Sequence record: MK373778.1
Strand: one strand, 5' to 3'
Origin: Escherichia phage vB_EcoM_WFbE185
DNA: 64,000 nt
This document shows, one piece after another, positions 59,129 through 62,779 of this stretch (the stretch's first letter is position 1; each line of letters begins with the position of its first letter). The notes below the pieces were generated by a model. The model did not search any database and was not told the DNA's origin. It was given only the letters and a program-made list of their open reading frames with translations. A program made the position numbers and the translations under genes.

Positions 59129-59154
59129 TGTTTTGTGAGGAAAAAATGCACAAA

Positions 59155-59170
59155 GGGAGCTTCGGCTCCC
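59155..59170 (-). terminator. terminator after gene 52
   Basis: GGGAGC-CGAA-GCUCCC followed by UUUGUGCAUUUUUUCC on the minus strand. Confidence 0.55.
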
Positions 59171-59246
59171 TAATCATGTTTGTCCAACCAATATAGCCAA
59201 ATCACTAGTGCAGCTATTGCACTGAGAAATCCTAAGGCTAAGGCAC

Positions 59247-60572
59247 TCAAAGTGCCTCCAAGTCTTTAGTGTACTCTGTCACAACATCAGTAGACTTCCA
59301 ATACTCATTTTCTTCTTTCTTAGCTTTAGCTTCTTCTGCTAGTTTACGTGCTTCATCGGAAGTGATATGGAAGATGTTAAGACCTACCAGTTTATCGACA
59401 TGTTCTTTATACATTTCGATTTGTGCTAGCTCTTCAGTCAAAGCTTTACGAGTCTTGCCCTGAATCACAATTTCACCGTTGATAACTTTTTTGATGAAGT
59501 GTGCCTTAGCAAAAGCAAGTTTAAATGCTTTTTCAGATTCAAGGATTTTGTTGTCAATACGTTTCTGAACGTAAGTCTTACGGACTTCAACAAAATCTTT
59601 GATTAAGTCCACTACGTTATCATAGACAGCTAATTTACCCTTTTCATTAATCACTGTGATGTTTTGTGAACGACGTTCGATGAGACTAAAATCTTTCATG
59701 ATTTTTTCATGACGTAGCTCTTCATCATCAGGAAGCGAGTACTCTTTACGGAACTTCACCTTAAACCCAAAGCCGTGTTCACCACAATCATCTTCCCATG
59801 AGATTAGACCTTTGTCTTCCAACGGGTCAAGAACCTTACTCACATACGTTTCACGGTCGAATTTATATGGGATTTCAGTTATCTGCATTTGAGTGCGAGA
59901 TGTGAACTTATACGTTCCGTGAATCTCATAACGCCCATCAACTTCATGTACTTCACCACGGAATTCCGGGAATTCAACTTTTGGCTTAGTGACATTTTTA
60001 CCTTGAAGAGCTTGTAATACAGCCTTTTTGACTGATTTAAAACTATGAGGCAGAATATTTGTTGCGTAACCGGTTGCAATACCAGAGACGCCATTCAAAA
60101 GAACTGTCGGAATAATAGGAAGATAGAATTTTGGTGGAATGTGTTCTTTATCTTCATGAGCTGGAGCATATTCAGTATCTTTATATACGTTATAGAAATT
60201 TTTACTTACACGAGCAAAAATATAACGAGATGCTGCAGCTTTTTGGACTGTTCGAGAACCAAAGTTGCCTTGGCCATCTAACAGTGGATAGTTGTTGTTC
60301 CATGTGTTAGCCATCAATGCACCTGCATCTTGTGCAGAAGATTCACCATGGTGATAACCTAAATCTGCAACACCGCCTGCAATTGACGCAAGTTTATGAA
60401 ATTTTTCTTTATTACCACGAGCCAAATCTAACGCACGATGGACCACAAAACGTTGAACCGGCTTAAATCCATCAATCATGTTTGGGATTGCACGGTTTTC
60501 AACGGTGTACATCGCATATGCTAAGGCTTCGTTATCAATAATACTTTTTAGATTACGAGAATTCAATTGCAT
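59247..60572 (-). CDS. 52: DNA topoisomerase II medium subunit gp52
   Basis: 441 aa; MQLNSRNLKSIIDNEALAYAMYTVENRAIPNMIDGFKPVQR matches T4 gp52. Confidence 0.95.
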   Translation of the reverse strand: MQLNSRNLKSIIDNEALAYAMYTVENRAIPNMIDGFKPVQRFVVHRALDLARGNKEKFHKLASIAGGVADLGYHHGESSAQDAGALMANTWNNNYPLLDGQGNFGSRTVQKAAASRYIFARVSKNFYNVYKDTEYAPAHEDKEHIPPKFYLPIIPTVLLNGVSGIATGYATNILPHSFKSVKKAVLQALQGKNVTKPKVEFPEFRGEVHEVDGRYEIHGTYKFTSRTQMQITEIPYKFDRETYVSKVLDPLEDKGLISWEDDCGEHGFGFKVKFRKEYSLPDDEELRHEKIMKDFSLIERRSQNITVINEKGKLAVYDNVVDLIKDFVEVRKTYVQKRIDNKILESEKAFKLAFAKAHFIKKVINGEIVIQGKTRKALTEELAQIEMYKEHVDKLVGLNIFHITSDEARKLAEEAKAKKEENEYWKSTDVVTEYTKDLEAL

Positions 60573-60576
60573 ATTT

Positions 60577-60717
60577 TCACCATATTAATGAACGAATAAC
60601 CATTATAACATCTGAAATGAAAAGCACTACTTGGATTAGTCCAAACATCACACCGTAGTACAGAACCGTAAGCAACAACAAGAGCCCGAAGGCTCCTGCT
60701 AAGATTTTCTTAATCAT
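60577..60717 (-). CDS. small hydrophobic membrane peptide, 46 aa (T4 ac/stp/52.1 region)
   Basis: Manual translation MIKKILAGAFGLLLLLTVLYYGVMFGLIQVVLFISDVIMVIRSLIW; TAATG overlap with upstream peptide ORF; below track size cut-off. Confidence 0.35.
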   Translation of the reverse strand: MIKKILAGAFGLLLLLTVLYYGVMFGLIQVVLFISDVIMVIRSLIW

Positions 60718-60863
60718 TACTCGCCTTTTAACACGTTAAGAAGAGCTAAGACCGCTAAGGTACCTTGTGATACGGCCTGTTGAAATACTGTTGTTTCGCC
60801 TGTAACTAAAGTGTTAACGAATAAAAACGACCAACACAGCAATGCAATAATCCATGCTATCAT
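60717..60863 (-). CDS. small hydrophobic membrane peptide, 48 aa
   Basis: Manual translation MIAWIIALLCWSFLFVNTLVTGETTVFQQAVSQGTLAVLALLNVLKGE; GAGGT RBS 8 nt upstream. Confidence 0.35.
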   Translation of the reverse strand: MIAWIIALLCWSFLFVNTLVTGETTVFQQAVSQGTLAVLALLNVLKGE

Positions 60864-60887
60864 TTTAATTACCTCAAAAATAAATTA

Positions 60888-60907
60888 AAGGCCCAACTTA
60901 ATAGGCC
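60888..60907 (-). terminator. terminator after ndd
   Basis: AGGCC-N10-GGCCU hairpin followed by UUAAUUUAUUUUUG on the minus strand. Confidence 0.45.
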
Positions 60908-60915
60908 TATATAAA

Positions 60916-61362
60916 TTAGTAACTCTGCAGAATGAATTTGAAATTATCAGCCAGAAGACGGTTCATTTCAGTGAGTGTTTGATATTCTGATGTATGGTTG
61001 CGAGTGAATGCCAGAGCCAATTGACCTTTACCATAACCAGTGGTCAGTGGTTTCATGTTCTTAGCTGCAACAAAGATTACGTCATATTCAATATTGTTAG
61101 TGCCCATGGTACGGGCTAGTTGCGAACGGCCTTGACGAATGTGAGAAAGAATTGCATCCAACCCTTGTTTAGAACGTTGACGTCCTACAAAGAATCGAGC
61201 TGCTACTTGTCGCCAATCAGATGAACCTTTAACGAAGAAGTAAAAACCTTCACGAGAACGAAACTCTTTAGAAACTTCAGAACCGTATTCGCCATTACAA
61301 ACTACTGCAACAACTTCACCGCCAACTGCCAGAAGGTCTTTACGAGTTAAATATTTGGACAT
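60916..61362 (-). CDS. ndd: nucleoid disruption protein Ndd
   Basis: 148 aa; [13 protein letters not shown]...[14 protein letters not shown]...[21 protein letters not shown]...[10 protein letters not shown] matches T4 Ndd. Confidence 0.85.
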
Positions 61363-61406
61363 GCTAATTTCCTCAATTGATTAATGTTTTTGTAATCCAT
61401 GAGAGC

Positions 61407-61436
61407 ATTATACTCTGCTCTCAAGAGTTTGTACAA
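61407..61436 (-). promoter_or_regulatory. early promoter (TTGTAC-N18-TATAAT) for ndd, -10 inside inverted repeat GAGAGCA/TGCTCTC
   Basis: Near-duplicate of the 32087-32116 cassette. Confidence 0.45.
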
Positions 61437-61438
61437 TT

Positions 61439-61639
61439 TTATTCGGCCATATCAGAACGTTCAAAAAGCTCTTCAACAGTTAAACATTCAGTGTCATCTT
61501 CAATAAAGAATCGAGTCCAACACGTTGGGGCGATACAGTTATGAGTTTGTCCGGCGATAGAAGCTACACGAATAAGCTGCTGACCGTTATTCAGAACAAA
61601 TTTTTCACCAATTTCAACATCTTTAAAAAGCTTAGCCAT
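61439..61639 (-). CDS. hypothetical protein (ndd.x-like)
   Basis: 66-aa ORF with GAGGAA RBS and early promoter at 61668-61697. Confidence 0.45.
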   Translation of the reverse strand: MAKLFKDVEIGEKFVLNNGQQLIRVASIAGQTHNCIAPTCWTRFFIEDDTECLTVEELFERSDMAE

Positions 61640-61667
61640 TTTGTGTTCCTCATGTTTCAGTAGGACT

Positions 61668-61697
61668 ACTATACCATAATCCTACCTTGTTGTAAAC
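61668..61697 (-). promoter_or_regulatory. early promoter (GTTTAC-N18-TATAGT) with -10 inside inverted repeat TAGGA/TCCTA
   Basis: Drives ORF 61439-61639; similar to the 62180-62209 cassette. Confidence 0.45.
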
Positions 61698-61889
61698 AAT
61701 TAAATTACATTAAAATATGTTAAAGCCAACCATGTTCCAGTGAACGAACATGCGATGTAAAACCACGCATCACAAATTGTTCTTAGTACAATAAGAAGTG
61801 CATTTTTCATAAGTACCTCAACACAATTGAAAATATTATACAAATCATTGGGATACTAAGCAACCATATTCCTATCCACATTTTAGAGC

Positions 61890-62153
61890 TCATATCTCAA
61901 CTTCCGCGAGTTCCATATATCCTTTGTTGATAACCTCTTTAAGGTCTTTAGAAAGAATAACACCAAAATGGTCGTTCATATGTCCATTAACTAAACGAGT
62001 TATTTCGGCTTCAGATGACATATAAGGCACGTCTGAGTCCCAATGAGATAGTCCCAAATGGGTATAAATCATCCCTTCGTCATCTGCAGTGTTGTACATT
62101 GAAACAAATTCGCCTGTTACTTTATGTTTTGCGTAGAAAAATTTAAATTTCAT
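61890..62153 (-). CDS. hypothetical protein (ndd.x-like)
   Basis: 87-aa ORF with early promoter at 62180-62209. Confidence 0.45.
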   Translation of the reverse strand: MKFKFFYAKHKVTGEFVSMYNTADDEGMIYTHLGLSHWDSDVPYMSSEAEITRLVNGHMNDHFGVILSKDLKEVINKGYMELAEVEI

Positions 62154-62179
62154 GATGTTATCCTCTTTTAGATAGGACT

Positions 62180-62209
62180 ACTATATCATAGTCCTACTTA
62201 GTTGTAAAC
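62180..62209 (-). promoter_or_regulatory. early promoter (GTTTAC-N18-TATAGT) with -10 inside inverted repeat TAGGACT/AGTCCTA
   Basis: Drives ORF 61890-62153; lies just downstream of the denB stop. Confidence 0.45.
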
Positions 62210-62221
62210 ACTTTTGTGAAA

Positions 62222-62779
62222 TTAAAGATGAAGATACCACCCGTTGTAGTTGCTCTTGCGGACGATTTTCTTTAGGTCTTCATGGTCTCCCACGAACTTT
62301 ATAGAATAAGAGAAGACGTCAGGTGAGGTTTCTTTGACATCTAATATAATAATGCAATCTGCGACTCGATGGTTCAAGAAGGGCCCTATATTGATTCCAT
62401 TACCACCCGGATAATCACCACTGTATCCTGTGGTAACCGAAATCCATTTCGAATCCATCTGATGGGTCTTTACTTCTACGCGTAGACCACAGTACTTAGG
62501 ATGAGCTAAAACGTCCCATGCATACGTGTACGGGTCTTCTACGTCTTCATTACCTTTATTAACATATCCGTCTAGCCAATTTGCTACTACATACTCTGCA
62601 AAGACTGCAACCTTACAACGTCGAACAACGTCTTCTTTTATTTGACCTGGATCTTGTTTCAACGAGTACCGAGCAGTATCAGCGATCTTAACCTTCATTT
62701 CGCTAGTCAAAAACTCATTCGTCAGGATAAATGTCGGAAGACTCTTCAGCCTCAACAGCCCCAAGTTCGTCTTTACCAT
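62222..62779 (-). CDS. denB: endonuclease IV (DenB)-like protein
   Basis: Start ATG MVKTNLG with GAGGT RBS gives 185 aa, the T4 DenB length; position between ndd and rIIB; no sequence confirmation possible here. Confidence 0.65.
   Translation of the reverse strand: MVKTNLGLLRLKSLPTFILTNEFLTSEMKVKIADTARYSLKQDPGQIKEDVVRRCKVAVFAEYVVANWLDGYVNKGNEDVEDPYTYAWDVLAHPKYCGLRVEVKTHQMDSKWISVTTGYSGDYPGGNGINIGPFLNHRVADCIIILDVKETSPDVFSYSIKFVGDHEDLKKIVRKSNYNGWYLHL

Follow-up and report, generated by a model that had tools for sequence, protein, structure and literature searches.

The window, a stretch of 64,000 nucleotides of Escherichia phage vB_EcoM_WFbE185 (MK373778.1), was 99% identical to Mosigvirus genomes and belongs to a Mosigvirus, an RB69-like T-even phage. 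Four short hydrophobic open reading frames were found in the ORF listing where an earlier note on this DNA had placed them, one pair on either side of ndd (Table 1). All genes of the region are carried by the minus strand, and their order, 52, 52.1, ac, ndd, ndd.1 and, further on, ndd.6-type, denB and rIIB, is that of T4. All four are genuine phage genes, conserved and previously described in T4-like phages. Three are almost certainly the orthologues of 52.1, ac and ndd.6, and the fourth is a lineage-specific gene that is likewise already known; the observation was correct, yet ordinary. Each of the frames is annotated in at least one GenBank record, and genes of this set are annotated in the records of RB69, APCEc01 and phage 55. 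The peptides are not new candidates: the first pair are orthologues of the 52.1 and ac genes annotated in RB69, the 28-aa peptide is Ndd.6, and all four are annotated in phage 55. A 26-aa ORF that follows gene 52 in the window is without annotation.

Table 1. Genes and sequence features of the gene 52 to ndd.6 region of the window.
Feature	Position	Strand	Basis
Gene 52 (topoisomerase II medium subunit), directly downstream of 52.1	59247..60572	-	ORF list, relatives' annotation
gp52.1 orthologue, 46 aa, DUF7396 (PF24129), phrog_3595	60577..60717	-	ORF list, Pfam, PHROG
RNA hairpin of 11 bp with C(UUCG)G tetraloop, 52.1 codons 6-14	60676..60701	-	RNA fold
TAATG stop/start junction of ac and 52.1, one shared base	60715..60719	-	sequence (plus strand CATTA)
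Ac ("acridine resistance protein") orthologue, 48 aa, predicted two-helix hairpin	60717..60863	-	phrog_2501, synteny
GAGGT Shine-Dalgarno, 7 nt upstream of the ac ATG	60871..60875	-	sequence
Terminator-like hairpin AGGCCU..GGGCCU with U-rich tail, between ndd stop and ac	60889..60908	-	consensus scan, fold
ndd (nucleoid disruption protein), anchor between both peptide pairs	60916..61362	-	phrog_1102, E=5e-56; ndd in relatives' annotation
ndd.1	61439..61639	-	
Second promoter copy, near-identical to 62180..62208	61668..61696	-	consensus scan, sequence
36-aa Mosigvirus-specific peptide, phrog_18561, at the T4 ndd.5 position	61700..61810	-	ATG 61810
ATGA stop/start overlap, ndd.6 and 36-aa ORF	61807-61810	-	sequence
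Ndd.6 orthologue, 28 aa, one predicted transmembrane helix, central Pro	61807..61893	-	phrog_8851
GAGGT Shine-Dalgarno for the 36-aa ORF, within the 3' end of ndd.6	61815..61819	-	sequence (plus strand ACCTC)
87-aa ORF, phrog_2390, heading the ATGA-coupled chain 87 aa, Ndd.6, 36 aa	61890..62153	-	
ATGA stop/start overlap, 87-aa ORF and ndd.6	61890-61893	-	sequence
Putative sigma-70/T4-early-type promoter, TTTACA-17-TATAGT with upstream TG	62180..62208	-	consensus match only, 10/12

Frames of this size may be open by chance. With the base composition of the window, the chance that a random frame lacks a stop over 28-48 codons is 3-14%, and ORF length alone is therefore weak evidence. The peptides ranked in the top 1-9% for hydrophobicity among the 223 small ORFs of the window, and by summed transfer energy their hydrophobic segments had favourable insertion energies, save for the marginal 36-aa peptide. 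The comparative evidence, namely conservation among records, pN/pS and an in-frame indel, was judged to be decisive for coding. With each peptide as a tblastn query, the number of phage records with a match was 727 for the 46-aa, 272 for the 48-aa, 152 for the 36-aa and 746 for the 28-aa peptide. Within Mosigvirus, pN/pS ranged from 0.14 to 0.47 over the four frames, so that replacement changes were rarer than silent ones. The comparison set was drawn from GenBank phage records; an IMG/VR scan anchored on Ndd returned only 3 near-identical loci. Failure of the frames to be conserved in relatives had been named beforehand as a possible refutation, and they were found to be conserved. With pN/pS below 0.5 as well, the claim that these are genuine genes for small hydrophobic, membrane-type peptides was borne out.

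The Pfam match of the 46-aa frame scored 79.9 bits against a gathering cut-off of 27 and extended over positions 1-46 of 46. The frame shares its PHROG with T4 52.1, and the RB69 gene RB69p266 is annotated as gp52.1. The protein has the length of T4 gp52.1 and is 72% identical to it, and in both the gene lies 4 nt from gene 52; the final codons, TGG-TGA, provide gene 52 with a GGTGA Shine-Dalgarno sequence. An alignment of 8 sequences from six genera, T4 included, gave 18 invariant residues, and the conserved motif LYYG...VLFISD.I....SL.W is present in the window ORF. The two proteins differ in the N-terminal helix (AGAFGLLLLLTV versus GYSLALAALLVA) and the two genes in the sequence of the embedded RNA hairpin. 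In the comparison with T4, silent sites approach saturation (pS 0.73) and pN is 0.18; across genera pS is 0.66-0.75 versus a pN of 0.18-0.26. The C-terminal half is almost invariant and contains membrane-embedded Q, S and D residues. The protein has approximately 44 hydrophobic residues, about double one membrane span, and its AF2 model is helical. In KP179, Entb_45 and PEi20, 52.1 is without annotation, and the CGG4-1 record has the opposite strand annotated instead of the 52.1-like ORF.

The RNA hairpin inside 52.1 was kept in 13 of the 13 Mosigvirus sequences examined and was more stable there than synonymous recodings (p=0.002). The signal reached significance in Mosigvirus and the lineage of T4, Dhakavirus and Gaprivervirus (p=0.002-0.01) but not in KP179, Entb_45 and PEi20 (p=0.08-0.26), and the hairpin was absent in CGG4-1 (p=0.69). 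The idea of a universal feature was rejected on account of these four phages. The annotation of phage MM02 lists the hairpin as a putative terminator.

The 48-aa frame matched the phrog_2501 profile with an E value of 3.5e-22 over residues 1-48, as compared with 2.2e-25 for T4 Ac, and its RB69 equivalent, RB69p267, is annotated "ac". It is preceded by ndd and coupled to 52.1 downstream, an order that is the same in T4 and RB69. T4 Ac (51 aa) has a similar size, the same PHROG and position and the same two-helix prediction, and shares the W, T, V-F-x-Q and Q-G motif, including the functionally required glycine. Identity between the two is however no more than about 32-34%; the window protein ends in KGE at a 1-nt TAATG junction, whereas T4 Ac ends in SND with an overlap of 8 nt. 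Residues W11, V16, T18, V26, Q29, Q33 and G34 were invariant in an alignment of five sequences that included T4, Gaprivervirus and Jiaodavirus, and G34 corresponds to G38 of T4 Ac. The T4 substitution G38R abolishes function and makes the phage resistant to acriflavine (10.1101/2025.06.30.662393). The AF2 single-sequence model, with a pLDDT of 80, consists of two hydrophobic helices, 2-21 and 24-46, with a brief polar turn between them, and an ESMfold model of T4 Ac has the same two-helix shape (10.1101/2025.06.30.662393). Within Mosigvirus the pN/pS of ac was 0.14. A family match was not obtained for Ac in the Pfam and NCBIfam libraries searched.

In the earlier note, the first pair had been described as ORFs of 46 and 48 aa that meet in a TAATG junction at the place where T4 carries ac, stp and 52.1. 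The ORFs and the junction are present, and the position is confirmed by synteny; stp itself is missing. The description of the peptides as single-helix applies to the 28-aa peptide only, and not to Ac, for which two helices are modelled, nor to gp52.1 with its approximately 44 hydrophobic residues.

The 28-aa frame matched the phrog_8851 profile at E=3.7e-11 (T4 Ndd.6, 1.6e-17). Its start is the ATG at 61893 (MSSKMW...) and not position 61881, because the N-terminus MSS(K/L)xW is conserved in T4 and in other genera and the internal methionine is not. Residues W6, W10, I14, P15 and C18 (W-x3-W-x3-IP-x2-C) were invariant across six genera, and pN/pS was 0.14. T4 Ndd.6 has the same length and PHROG, 54% identity, and an ATGA overlap with the next small ORF. 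T4 differs in being without the ORF of about 88 aa that heads ndd.6 here, in Dhakavirus and in Gaprivervirus; in the latter two genera, too, the stop of the homologue and the start of ndd.6 overlap by 4 nt. Although the family carries the label "outer membrane protein", the label was predicted computationally and inherited from the T4 record. On direct reading, the sequence showed neither a cleavable signal peptide nor a lipobox, and the summed Hessa transfer energy of residues 5-25 was -1.6 to -1.9 kcal/mol. A helix in the inner membrane, in conflict with the label, would fit the sequence better than an outer-membrane protein.

The 36-aa ORF matched phrog_18561 at E=1.3e-26 and no other PHROG. 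All of its 152 tblastn records were of the Mosigvirus type, and an exhaustive HMMER search placed the peptide in a single 50%-identity cluster, its own. Its pN/pS was 0.31. One relative has an in-frame deletion of 3 nt and another, PECP20, a 1-nt frameshift. The summed transfer energy, +1.7 to +3.7 kcal/mol, makes the peptide only marginally hydrophobic; with this property and the frameshift of the deposited PECP20 genome against it, the ORF is less secure than the other three. T4 Ndd.5 (32 aa) is encoded at the same place, directly after ndd.6 and with an overlap of 4 nt, is of similar size and also starts with MK. Homology was nevertheless rejected (pairwise score 23, shuffle p=0.33). Ndd.5 belongs to a different PHROG, phrog_5011, and has no detectable similarity; it is a positional analogue only. 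For relatives the peptide is already deposited as a hypothetical protein. Its resemblance to the Entb_45 "type-B" peptide, in the N-terminal half of the latter, is marginal (p=0.009, uncorrected over 9 comparisons) and serves as a lead only.

The second pair had been placed in a 250-bp spacer upstream of the ORF at 61439-61639, with starts near 61810 and 61881. The ATG at 61810 and its GAGGT site were confirmed; the proposed peptide of 24 aa from 61881 is in reality the 28-aa protein. The supposed spacer, 61640-61890, is coding and holds two genes chained to the 87-aa ORF. The comparison with small T4 proteins that had been suggested yielded orthologues of Ac, 52.1 and Ndd.6, whereas Stp was absent and Ndd.5 dissimilar.

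Phage 55 has annotated ribosome-binding sites equivalent to those of ac and the 36-aa ORF, and the hairpin between ndd and ac is listed as a putative terminator in phage MM02. A scan with the sigma-70 consensus did not find a promoter-like site between ndd and ac. The promoter at 62180..62208 would drive an operon of the 87-aa ORF, ndd.6 and the 36-aa ORF, and its second copy, the -35 element of which abuts the stop codon of the 36-aa ORF, would drive ndd.1. The overlap of ac and 52.1 is 8 nt in T4, TH41 and KP179 instead of TAATG.

The four frames are very probably bona fide early-region genes that encode very small inner-membrane proteins and belong to the dispensable block between gene 52 and rIIB of T-even phages. 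The T4 deletion sa-delta-9 removes 52.1 through denB, and the phage is viable (PMC6071114). Judging from the sequence, transcription would start from T4-early-type promoters, translation of 52.1 would be coupled to that of ac through the TAATG junction, and translation of ndd.6 and then of the 36-aa ORF would be coupled to that of the 87-aa ORF through the two ATGA overlaps. In this phage, Ac would insert into the inner membrane as a two-helix hairpin and raise the intracellular acridine concentration. As a best guess, gp52.1, Ndd.6 and the 36-aa peptide may also bind host inner-membrane proteins through conserved polar and aromatic residues within the membrane; candidates for these residues are YYG...VLFISD..SLIW in gp52.1 and W...W...IP..C in Ndd.6.

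In T4, infected or Ac-expressing cells are hypersensitive to acriflavine, and Ac expressed alone from a plasmid sensitises E. coli to it (10.1101/2025.06.30.662393). Extension of the phenotype to the present phage is an extrapolation because of the low identity of the two proteins, and the literature search found no report of an acridine phenotype tested in any Mosigvirus. A 2025 preprint proposed, as a hypothesis, that Ac blocks AcrAB-TolC efflux (10.1101/2025.06.30.662393), and the hypothesis is echoed in PMC13250531. Efflux inhibition is a real possibility for Ac, if not quite a probable one. When E. coli AcrZ was compared with the window by tblastn, the best of the matches listed had an E value of 1.3, and all of them (E up to 10) fell outside the ac locus. 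AcrZ (49 aa), which binds AcrB, is also a helical inner-membrane peptide of similar size and would share the pump if the efflux hypothesis is right; since no sequence similarity to Ac was found, the comparison is one of working mode only. AcrZ crosses the membrane with one helix, and its effect is to help the pump, not to block it.

Small membrane peptides of this kind may instead be superinfection-exclusion or anti-defence factors, like T4 Imm or Sp, or Stp-like modulators of host defence, a role that had been suggested for them but is unlikely. The block is dispensable in laboratory hosts, as is usual for accessory host-range genes (PMC6071114). Moreover, the small membrane peptides encoded immediately upstream of 52.1 are unrelated in different phages, even within a genus (TH41 versus VR25), a turnover typical of arms-race genes, and the T4 interval contains stp, which according to the T4 annotation interacts with the Prr defence system. 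However, the peptides had no similarity to PADLOC models or to Stp, gp52.1 and Ndd.6 show unusual conservation instead of fast evolution, and such a phenotype was not reported for these genes in the literature searched. A search of five peptides against PADLOC-DB gave nothing at E<=0.01, the single listed match having an E value of 0.038; the test is a limited one because the models cover defence and not anti-defence proteins. T4 Stp (26 aa, the activator of PrrC), whose gene lies in the same ndd-to-52 interval of T4, is hydrophilic and not a membrane peptide. With Stp as the tblastn query, nothing was found in this interval of the window, and the best match elsewhere in it had an E value of 0.14; ndd is followed directly by the hairpin and then by ac, with no stp between. 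The proposed role was accordingly left without support, and acridine sensitisation by Ac is the sole phenotype of the families that is tied to experiment. Searches by tblastn found no similarity of the window to T4 Ndd.2-5 or MotA.1, a PDB sequence search of the peptides found none, and the main texts of the genome-wide T4 screens CRISPRi-ART and HIDEN-SEQ are silent on these genes.

It is also conceivable, though unlikely, that gp52.1 and the peptide encoded upstream, here Ac, form a heteromeric membrane complex in which gp52.1 is the constant core and the partner an exchangeable specificity subunit. The complex would act on the host envelope by inhibiting efflux, by bringing about the stimulation of phosphatidylglycerol synthesis that T4 induces, or both. 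The coupling of 52.1 to a preceding small membrane ORF in Mosigvirus, T4, Dhakavirus, Gaprivervirus, Jiaodavirus and Gelderlandvirus is consistent with this proposal, as are the near-invariance of the C-terminal half of gp52.1 with its embedded Q, S and D residues and the loss of phosphatidylglycerol stimulation when sa-delta-9 removes the block (PMC6071114). Coupling and synteny, however, do not demonstrate a physical complex, and Ac alone, from a plasmid, is sufficient to sensitise E. coli to acriflavine (10.1101/2025.06.30.662393). The lipid phenotype, moreover, is not mapped to one gene, because sa-delta-9 removes about a dozen. In a further form, likewise improbable, the proposal is that of a two-peptide inner-membrane module with a gp52.1 core and an exchangeable partner, and the module would disable host envelope machinery such as AcrAB-TolC. 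T4, Mosigvirus, TH41 and KP179 would use Ac as the partner; in WG01, VR25 and Entb_45 its place would be taken by an unrelated peptide of two helices.

A very improbable alternative is that gp52 is tethered to the membrane, or regulated there, by gp52.1 and the product of a small hydrophobic ORF that is coupled to gene 52 at its 3' end. In many Tevenvirinae, small hydrophobic ORFs are tightly coupled to gene 52 on either side: 52.1 sits 4 nt upstream, and an ORF at the MotA.1 position overlaps the gene 52 stop codon in T4, WG01, KP179, PEi20, CGG4-1 and the window. Nevertheless, tblastn found 52.1 in 727 records, as against 1992 with a relative of gp52, so that most are without it, and the downstream peptides are not homologous to one another. 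A fusion of a membrane peptide to gp52 was also considered, and it is unsupported since the 108-aa N-terminal extension of gp52 in Aeromonas phage 31 is acidic and not hydrophobic.

Finally, it is scarcely credible that the frames are untranslated and owe their conservation to RNA or DNA signals in intergenic spacers (hairpins, promoters, the gene 52 leader): for all that 52.1 contains a stable hairpin stronger than synonymous recodings give, that a promoter adjoins the 3' end of the 36-aa ORF and that ORF length by itself is not significant, the C-terminal 27 residues of gp52.1 are almost unchanged from T4 with silent sites near saturation, pN/pS is below 0.5 in all four frames, one relative has an in-frame indel, the hairpin signal is limited to the 5' half of 52.1 and absent in Gelderlandvirus, and expression of T4 ac yields a phenotype that a missense change abolishes (10.1101/2025.06.30.662393).

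As a contribution to genome annotation, the result is routine, three of the peptides being orthologues of named T4 genes and the fourth already deposited. The corrections to annotation include the start of Ndd.6 and the coding nature of the "spacer", which is unannotated in RB69. Few tiny proteins of T-even phages are as conserved as gp52.1 and Ndd.6. The Ac phenotype has been known since the 1960s, and efflux inhibition is the mechanism proposed for it. If Ac, alone or with gp52.1, does block AcrAB-TolC, it would be a natural peptide inhibitor of efflux with relevance to phage-antibiotic synergy; and if the two-peptide module exists, phages would carry natural efflux inhibitors of this kind in which the exchangeable partner sets the target specificity.

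The four small peptides described in the earlier note are encoded by genes that are already known. Every gene in the 60400-62300 part of the window lies on the minus strand, and many genomes of Mosigvirus (RB69-like, Tevenvirinae) match this 1.9-kb part with 98.5-99.3% identity. Transcription runs towards descending coordinates and passes rIIB, a 95-aa ORF, denB, the 87-aa, 28-aa and 36-aa ORFs, ndd.1, ndd, the 48-aa and 46-aa ORFs and gene 52, with motA further on; this order matches the T4 arrangement rIIB - denB - ndd.6...ndd.1 - ndd - stp - ac - 52.1 - 52 - motA.1 - motA. Stp, Ndd.2-5 and MotA.1 had no sequence match anywhere in the window. The reported ORFs, their TAATG junction and the GAGGT ribosome-binding site were confirmed in the sequence. 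However, the last peptide, given as 24 aa, has 28 residues (MSSKMW...) with its ATG at 61893; this start was preferred to the internal methionine because the MSSxxW N-terminus is kept in T4 and other genera and the internal methionine is not. Likewise, the supposed 250-bp spacer (61640-61890) is coding, and two ATGA overlaps chain the 87-aa, 28-aa and 36-aa ORFs.

Features of the region, with PHROG or Pfam families, phage records found by tblastn, pN/pS (replacement vs silent changes) within 11-14 Mosigvirus sequences, and residues invariant in the cross-genus alignment
Feature	Coordinates	Strand	Basis	Family	Records	pN/pS	Invariant residues
Promoter module upstream of 87-aa ORF	62170-62213	-
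87-aa ORF	61890-62153	-	ORF
28-aa ORF (Ndd.6)	61807-61893	-	ORF	phrog_8851 (also T4 Ndd.6)	746	0.14	W6, W10, I14, P15, C18
36-aa ORF	61700-61810	-	ORF	phrog_18561	152	0.31
Promoter module upstream of ndd.1	61658-61700	-
ndd.1	61439-61639	-
ndd	60916-61362	-
48-aa ORF (Ac)	60717-60863	-	ORF	phrog_2501 (also T4 Ac)	272	0.14	W11, V16, T18, V26, Q29, Q33, G34
46-aa ORF (gp52.1)	60577-60717	-	ORF	DUF7396 (79.9 bits, cut-off 27); phrog_3595 (also T4 gp52.1)	727	0.47	K4, I5, L6, L15, L19, Y20, Y21, G22, V31, L32, F33, I34, S35, D36, I38, S43, L44, W46
RNA hairpin, 52.1 codons 6-14	60676-60701	-
gene 52	59247-60572	-
26-aa ORF	59170-59250	-
Hairpin GGGAGC-CGAA-GCUCCC	59154-59171

The length of these ORFs is weak evidence by itself, because a random frame stays open as long 3-14% of the time. 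By hydrophobicity the peptides rank in the top 1-9% of the 223 small ORFs of the window. The case for real genes rests on sequence comparison with relatives, in which all four frames are kept (152-746 phage records). Compared with T4, 52.1 has silent sites close to saturation (pS 0.73), against a pN of 0.18. The 36-aa ORF has an in-frame 3-nt deletion in one relative. In one genome, PECP20 (locus L010, about 1645-1651), it is frameshifted by a 1-nt deletion in a G/T homopolymer run, which reflects a sequencing error or else a genuine pseudogene. All four ORFs are annotated in phage 55 (OQ599310) and three in APCEc01; RB69 labels the first two gp52.1 (46-aa) and ac (48-aa) and omits the 36-aa and 28-aa pair. 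With these corrections the original observation is confirmed. Its interpretation is partly supported: the peptides are real and of membrane type, but nothing points to exclusion or anti-defence as their role. No similarity was found to defence-system models, solved structures or AcrZ.

The peptides had been described as single helices, which, judged by hydrophobicity energies and AF2, applies to Ndd.6 only, predicted to be one helix with a central proline. gp52.1 is hydrophobic nearly end to end, its N-terminal half variable and its C-terminal half almost invariant. The AF2 model is a single 44-residue helix (pLDDT 96), long enough to span a membrane about twice, so the peptide may be either one long helix or a hairpin with a break at YYG. 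The Ac model has helices at 2-21 and 24-46 (pLDDT 80); residues 2-20 are strongly hydrophobic and the second helix is more amphipathic. Hydrophobicity is only marginal in the 36-aa peptide.

The possibility was considered that the 36-aa ORF is a homologue of Ndd.5, but the similarity was no better than that of shuffled sequences (p=0.33). T4 Ndd.5 belongs to a different family (phrog_5011), the tblastn records are of Mosigvirus type only, and HMMER, run exhaustively over 1.84 billion representative proteins, returned a single cluster. The ORF is therefore a positional analogue of Ndd.5, not a demonstrable homologue.

In the 5' half of 52.1 a C(UUCG)G tetraloop caps an 11-bp RNA hairpin, which the phage MM02 record labels a putative terminator. 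Hairpins of different sequence occupy the same place in T4, WG01, VR25 and TH41. The 5' half was more stable than 500 synonymous recodings (p=0.002-0.01) and the 3' half was not; KP179, Entb_45 and PEi20 gave a weak signal (p=0.08-0.26) and CGG4-1 none.

A consensus scan found T4-early-type promoter-like sites upstream of the 87-aa ORF, ndd.1 and ndd; sequence and scan place the stop of the 36-aa ORF next to the -35 element of the ndd.1 promoter. A terminator-like hairpin lies between ndd and ac, where the scan found no sigma-70-like promoter. The near-identical modules of ~40 nt before ndd.1 and the 87-aa ORF (TTGTTTACA ... TAGGACTA..TATAGT) would be a repeated early-promoter cassette. In T4 (L004, reverse-complement 1783-1911), an unannotated 42-aa frame just upstream of ndd.6 overlaps it by ATGA. 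Its C-terminus (...KMKIAEIEL) resembles that of the 87-aa ORF (...YMELAEVEI), and the frame may be what is left of that gene after a deletion in T4.

Downstream, the gene 52 stop and the TTG start of a 26-aa hydrophobic ORF (MSALALGFLSAIAALVIWLYWLDKHD) overlap as TTGA; the ORF lies at the position of T4 motA.1 and ends just before a hairpin. It is kept in five Mosigvirus relatives with mostly silent or conservative changes, and is unannotated in all three annotated records checked (phage 55, APCEc01, RB69). The gene 52 stop is also overlapped in WG01, KP179, PEi20 and CGG4-1, there by unrelated small hydrophobic ORFs.

Several GenBank records propagate the mislabel 'Naphthalene 1,2-dioxygenase' on ndd and neighbouring small ORFs, and several Tequatrovirus records have 'acridine resistance protein' as the sole feature under the 52.1 match. 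Unannotated 52.1 homologues lie in KP179 (L017 3110-3250), Entb_45 (L018 3726-3863) and PEi20 (L020 558-695); for the divergent CGG4-1 frame (L021 555-689), the record has an opposite-strand ORF (551-682) instead.

Ac is the sole experimental handle on function among the four. T4 lacking ac, or carrying Ac G38R, plates on acriflavine, and T4 ac expressed in E. coli raises acriflavine sensitivity about 1000-fold; a block of AcrAB-TolC by Ac was proposed as a hypothesis (preprint 10.1101/2025.06.30.662393) and is cited as an assumption in PMC13250531. The Ac of this phage would have the same activity, since the critical glycine is kept as G34. A precomputed table assigns Pfam PF26944.1 to a relative of Ac (P0004) assembled from a public sequencing run; a search of a local Pfam copy gave no match for P0004, for the Ac of this phage or for T4 Ac. 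The papers searched assign no function to gp52.1, Ndd.5 or Ndd.6. T4 with the sa-delta-9 deletion, which takes out 52.1, ac, stp, ndd, ndd.1-6 and denB, is viable; it loses the infection-induced stimulation of phosphatidylglycerol synthesis, an effect that may lie with any of the deleted genes (PMC6071114). That gp52.1 and its partner form a membrane module aimed at host envelope machinery, such as the efflux pump, is a speculative and quite improbable reading.

In every one of the Tevenvirinae genera compared, namely Mosigvirus, Tequatrovirus, Dhakavirus, Gaprivervirus, Jiaodavirus, Kanagawavirus (two phages) and Gelderlandvirus, 52.1 precedes gene 52 by 4-9 nt, often unannotated and in a divergent form in Gelderlandvirus. 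It was not found in the more distant Krischvirus, Acinetobacter, Serratia and Aeromonas phages, some of which have other membrane proteins at its position. In six of the seven genera 52.1 is coupled to whatever small membrane ORF precedes it: Ac-type in T4, Mosigvirus, TH41 and KP179, a two-helix peptide unrelated to Ac in WG01 and VR25, and a 60-aa protein in CGG4-1. The exception is Kanagawavirus (Entb_45, PEi20), with a different 43-aa ORF immediately before 52.1 and a relative of the two-helix peptide one slot further upstream. Within Gaprivervirus, the slot holds Ac in TH41 (L016 2980-3135) and the 55-aa two-helix peptide in VR25 (L019 4393-4560), which resembles a cassette-style replacement inside one genus.
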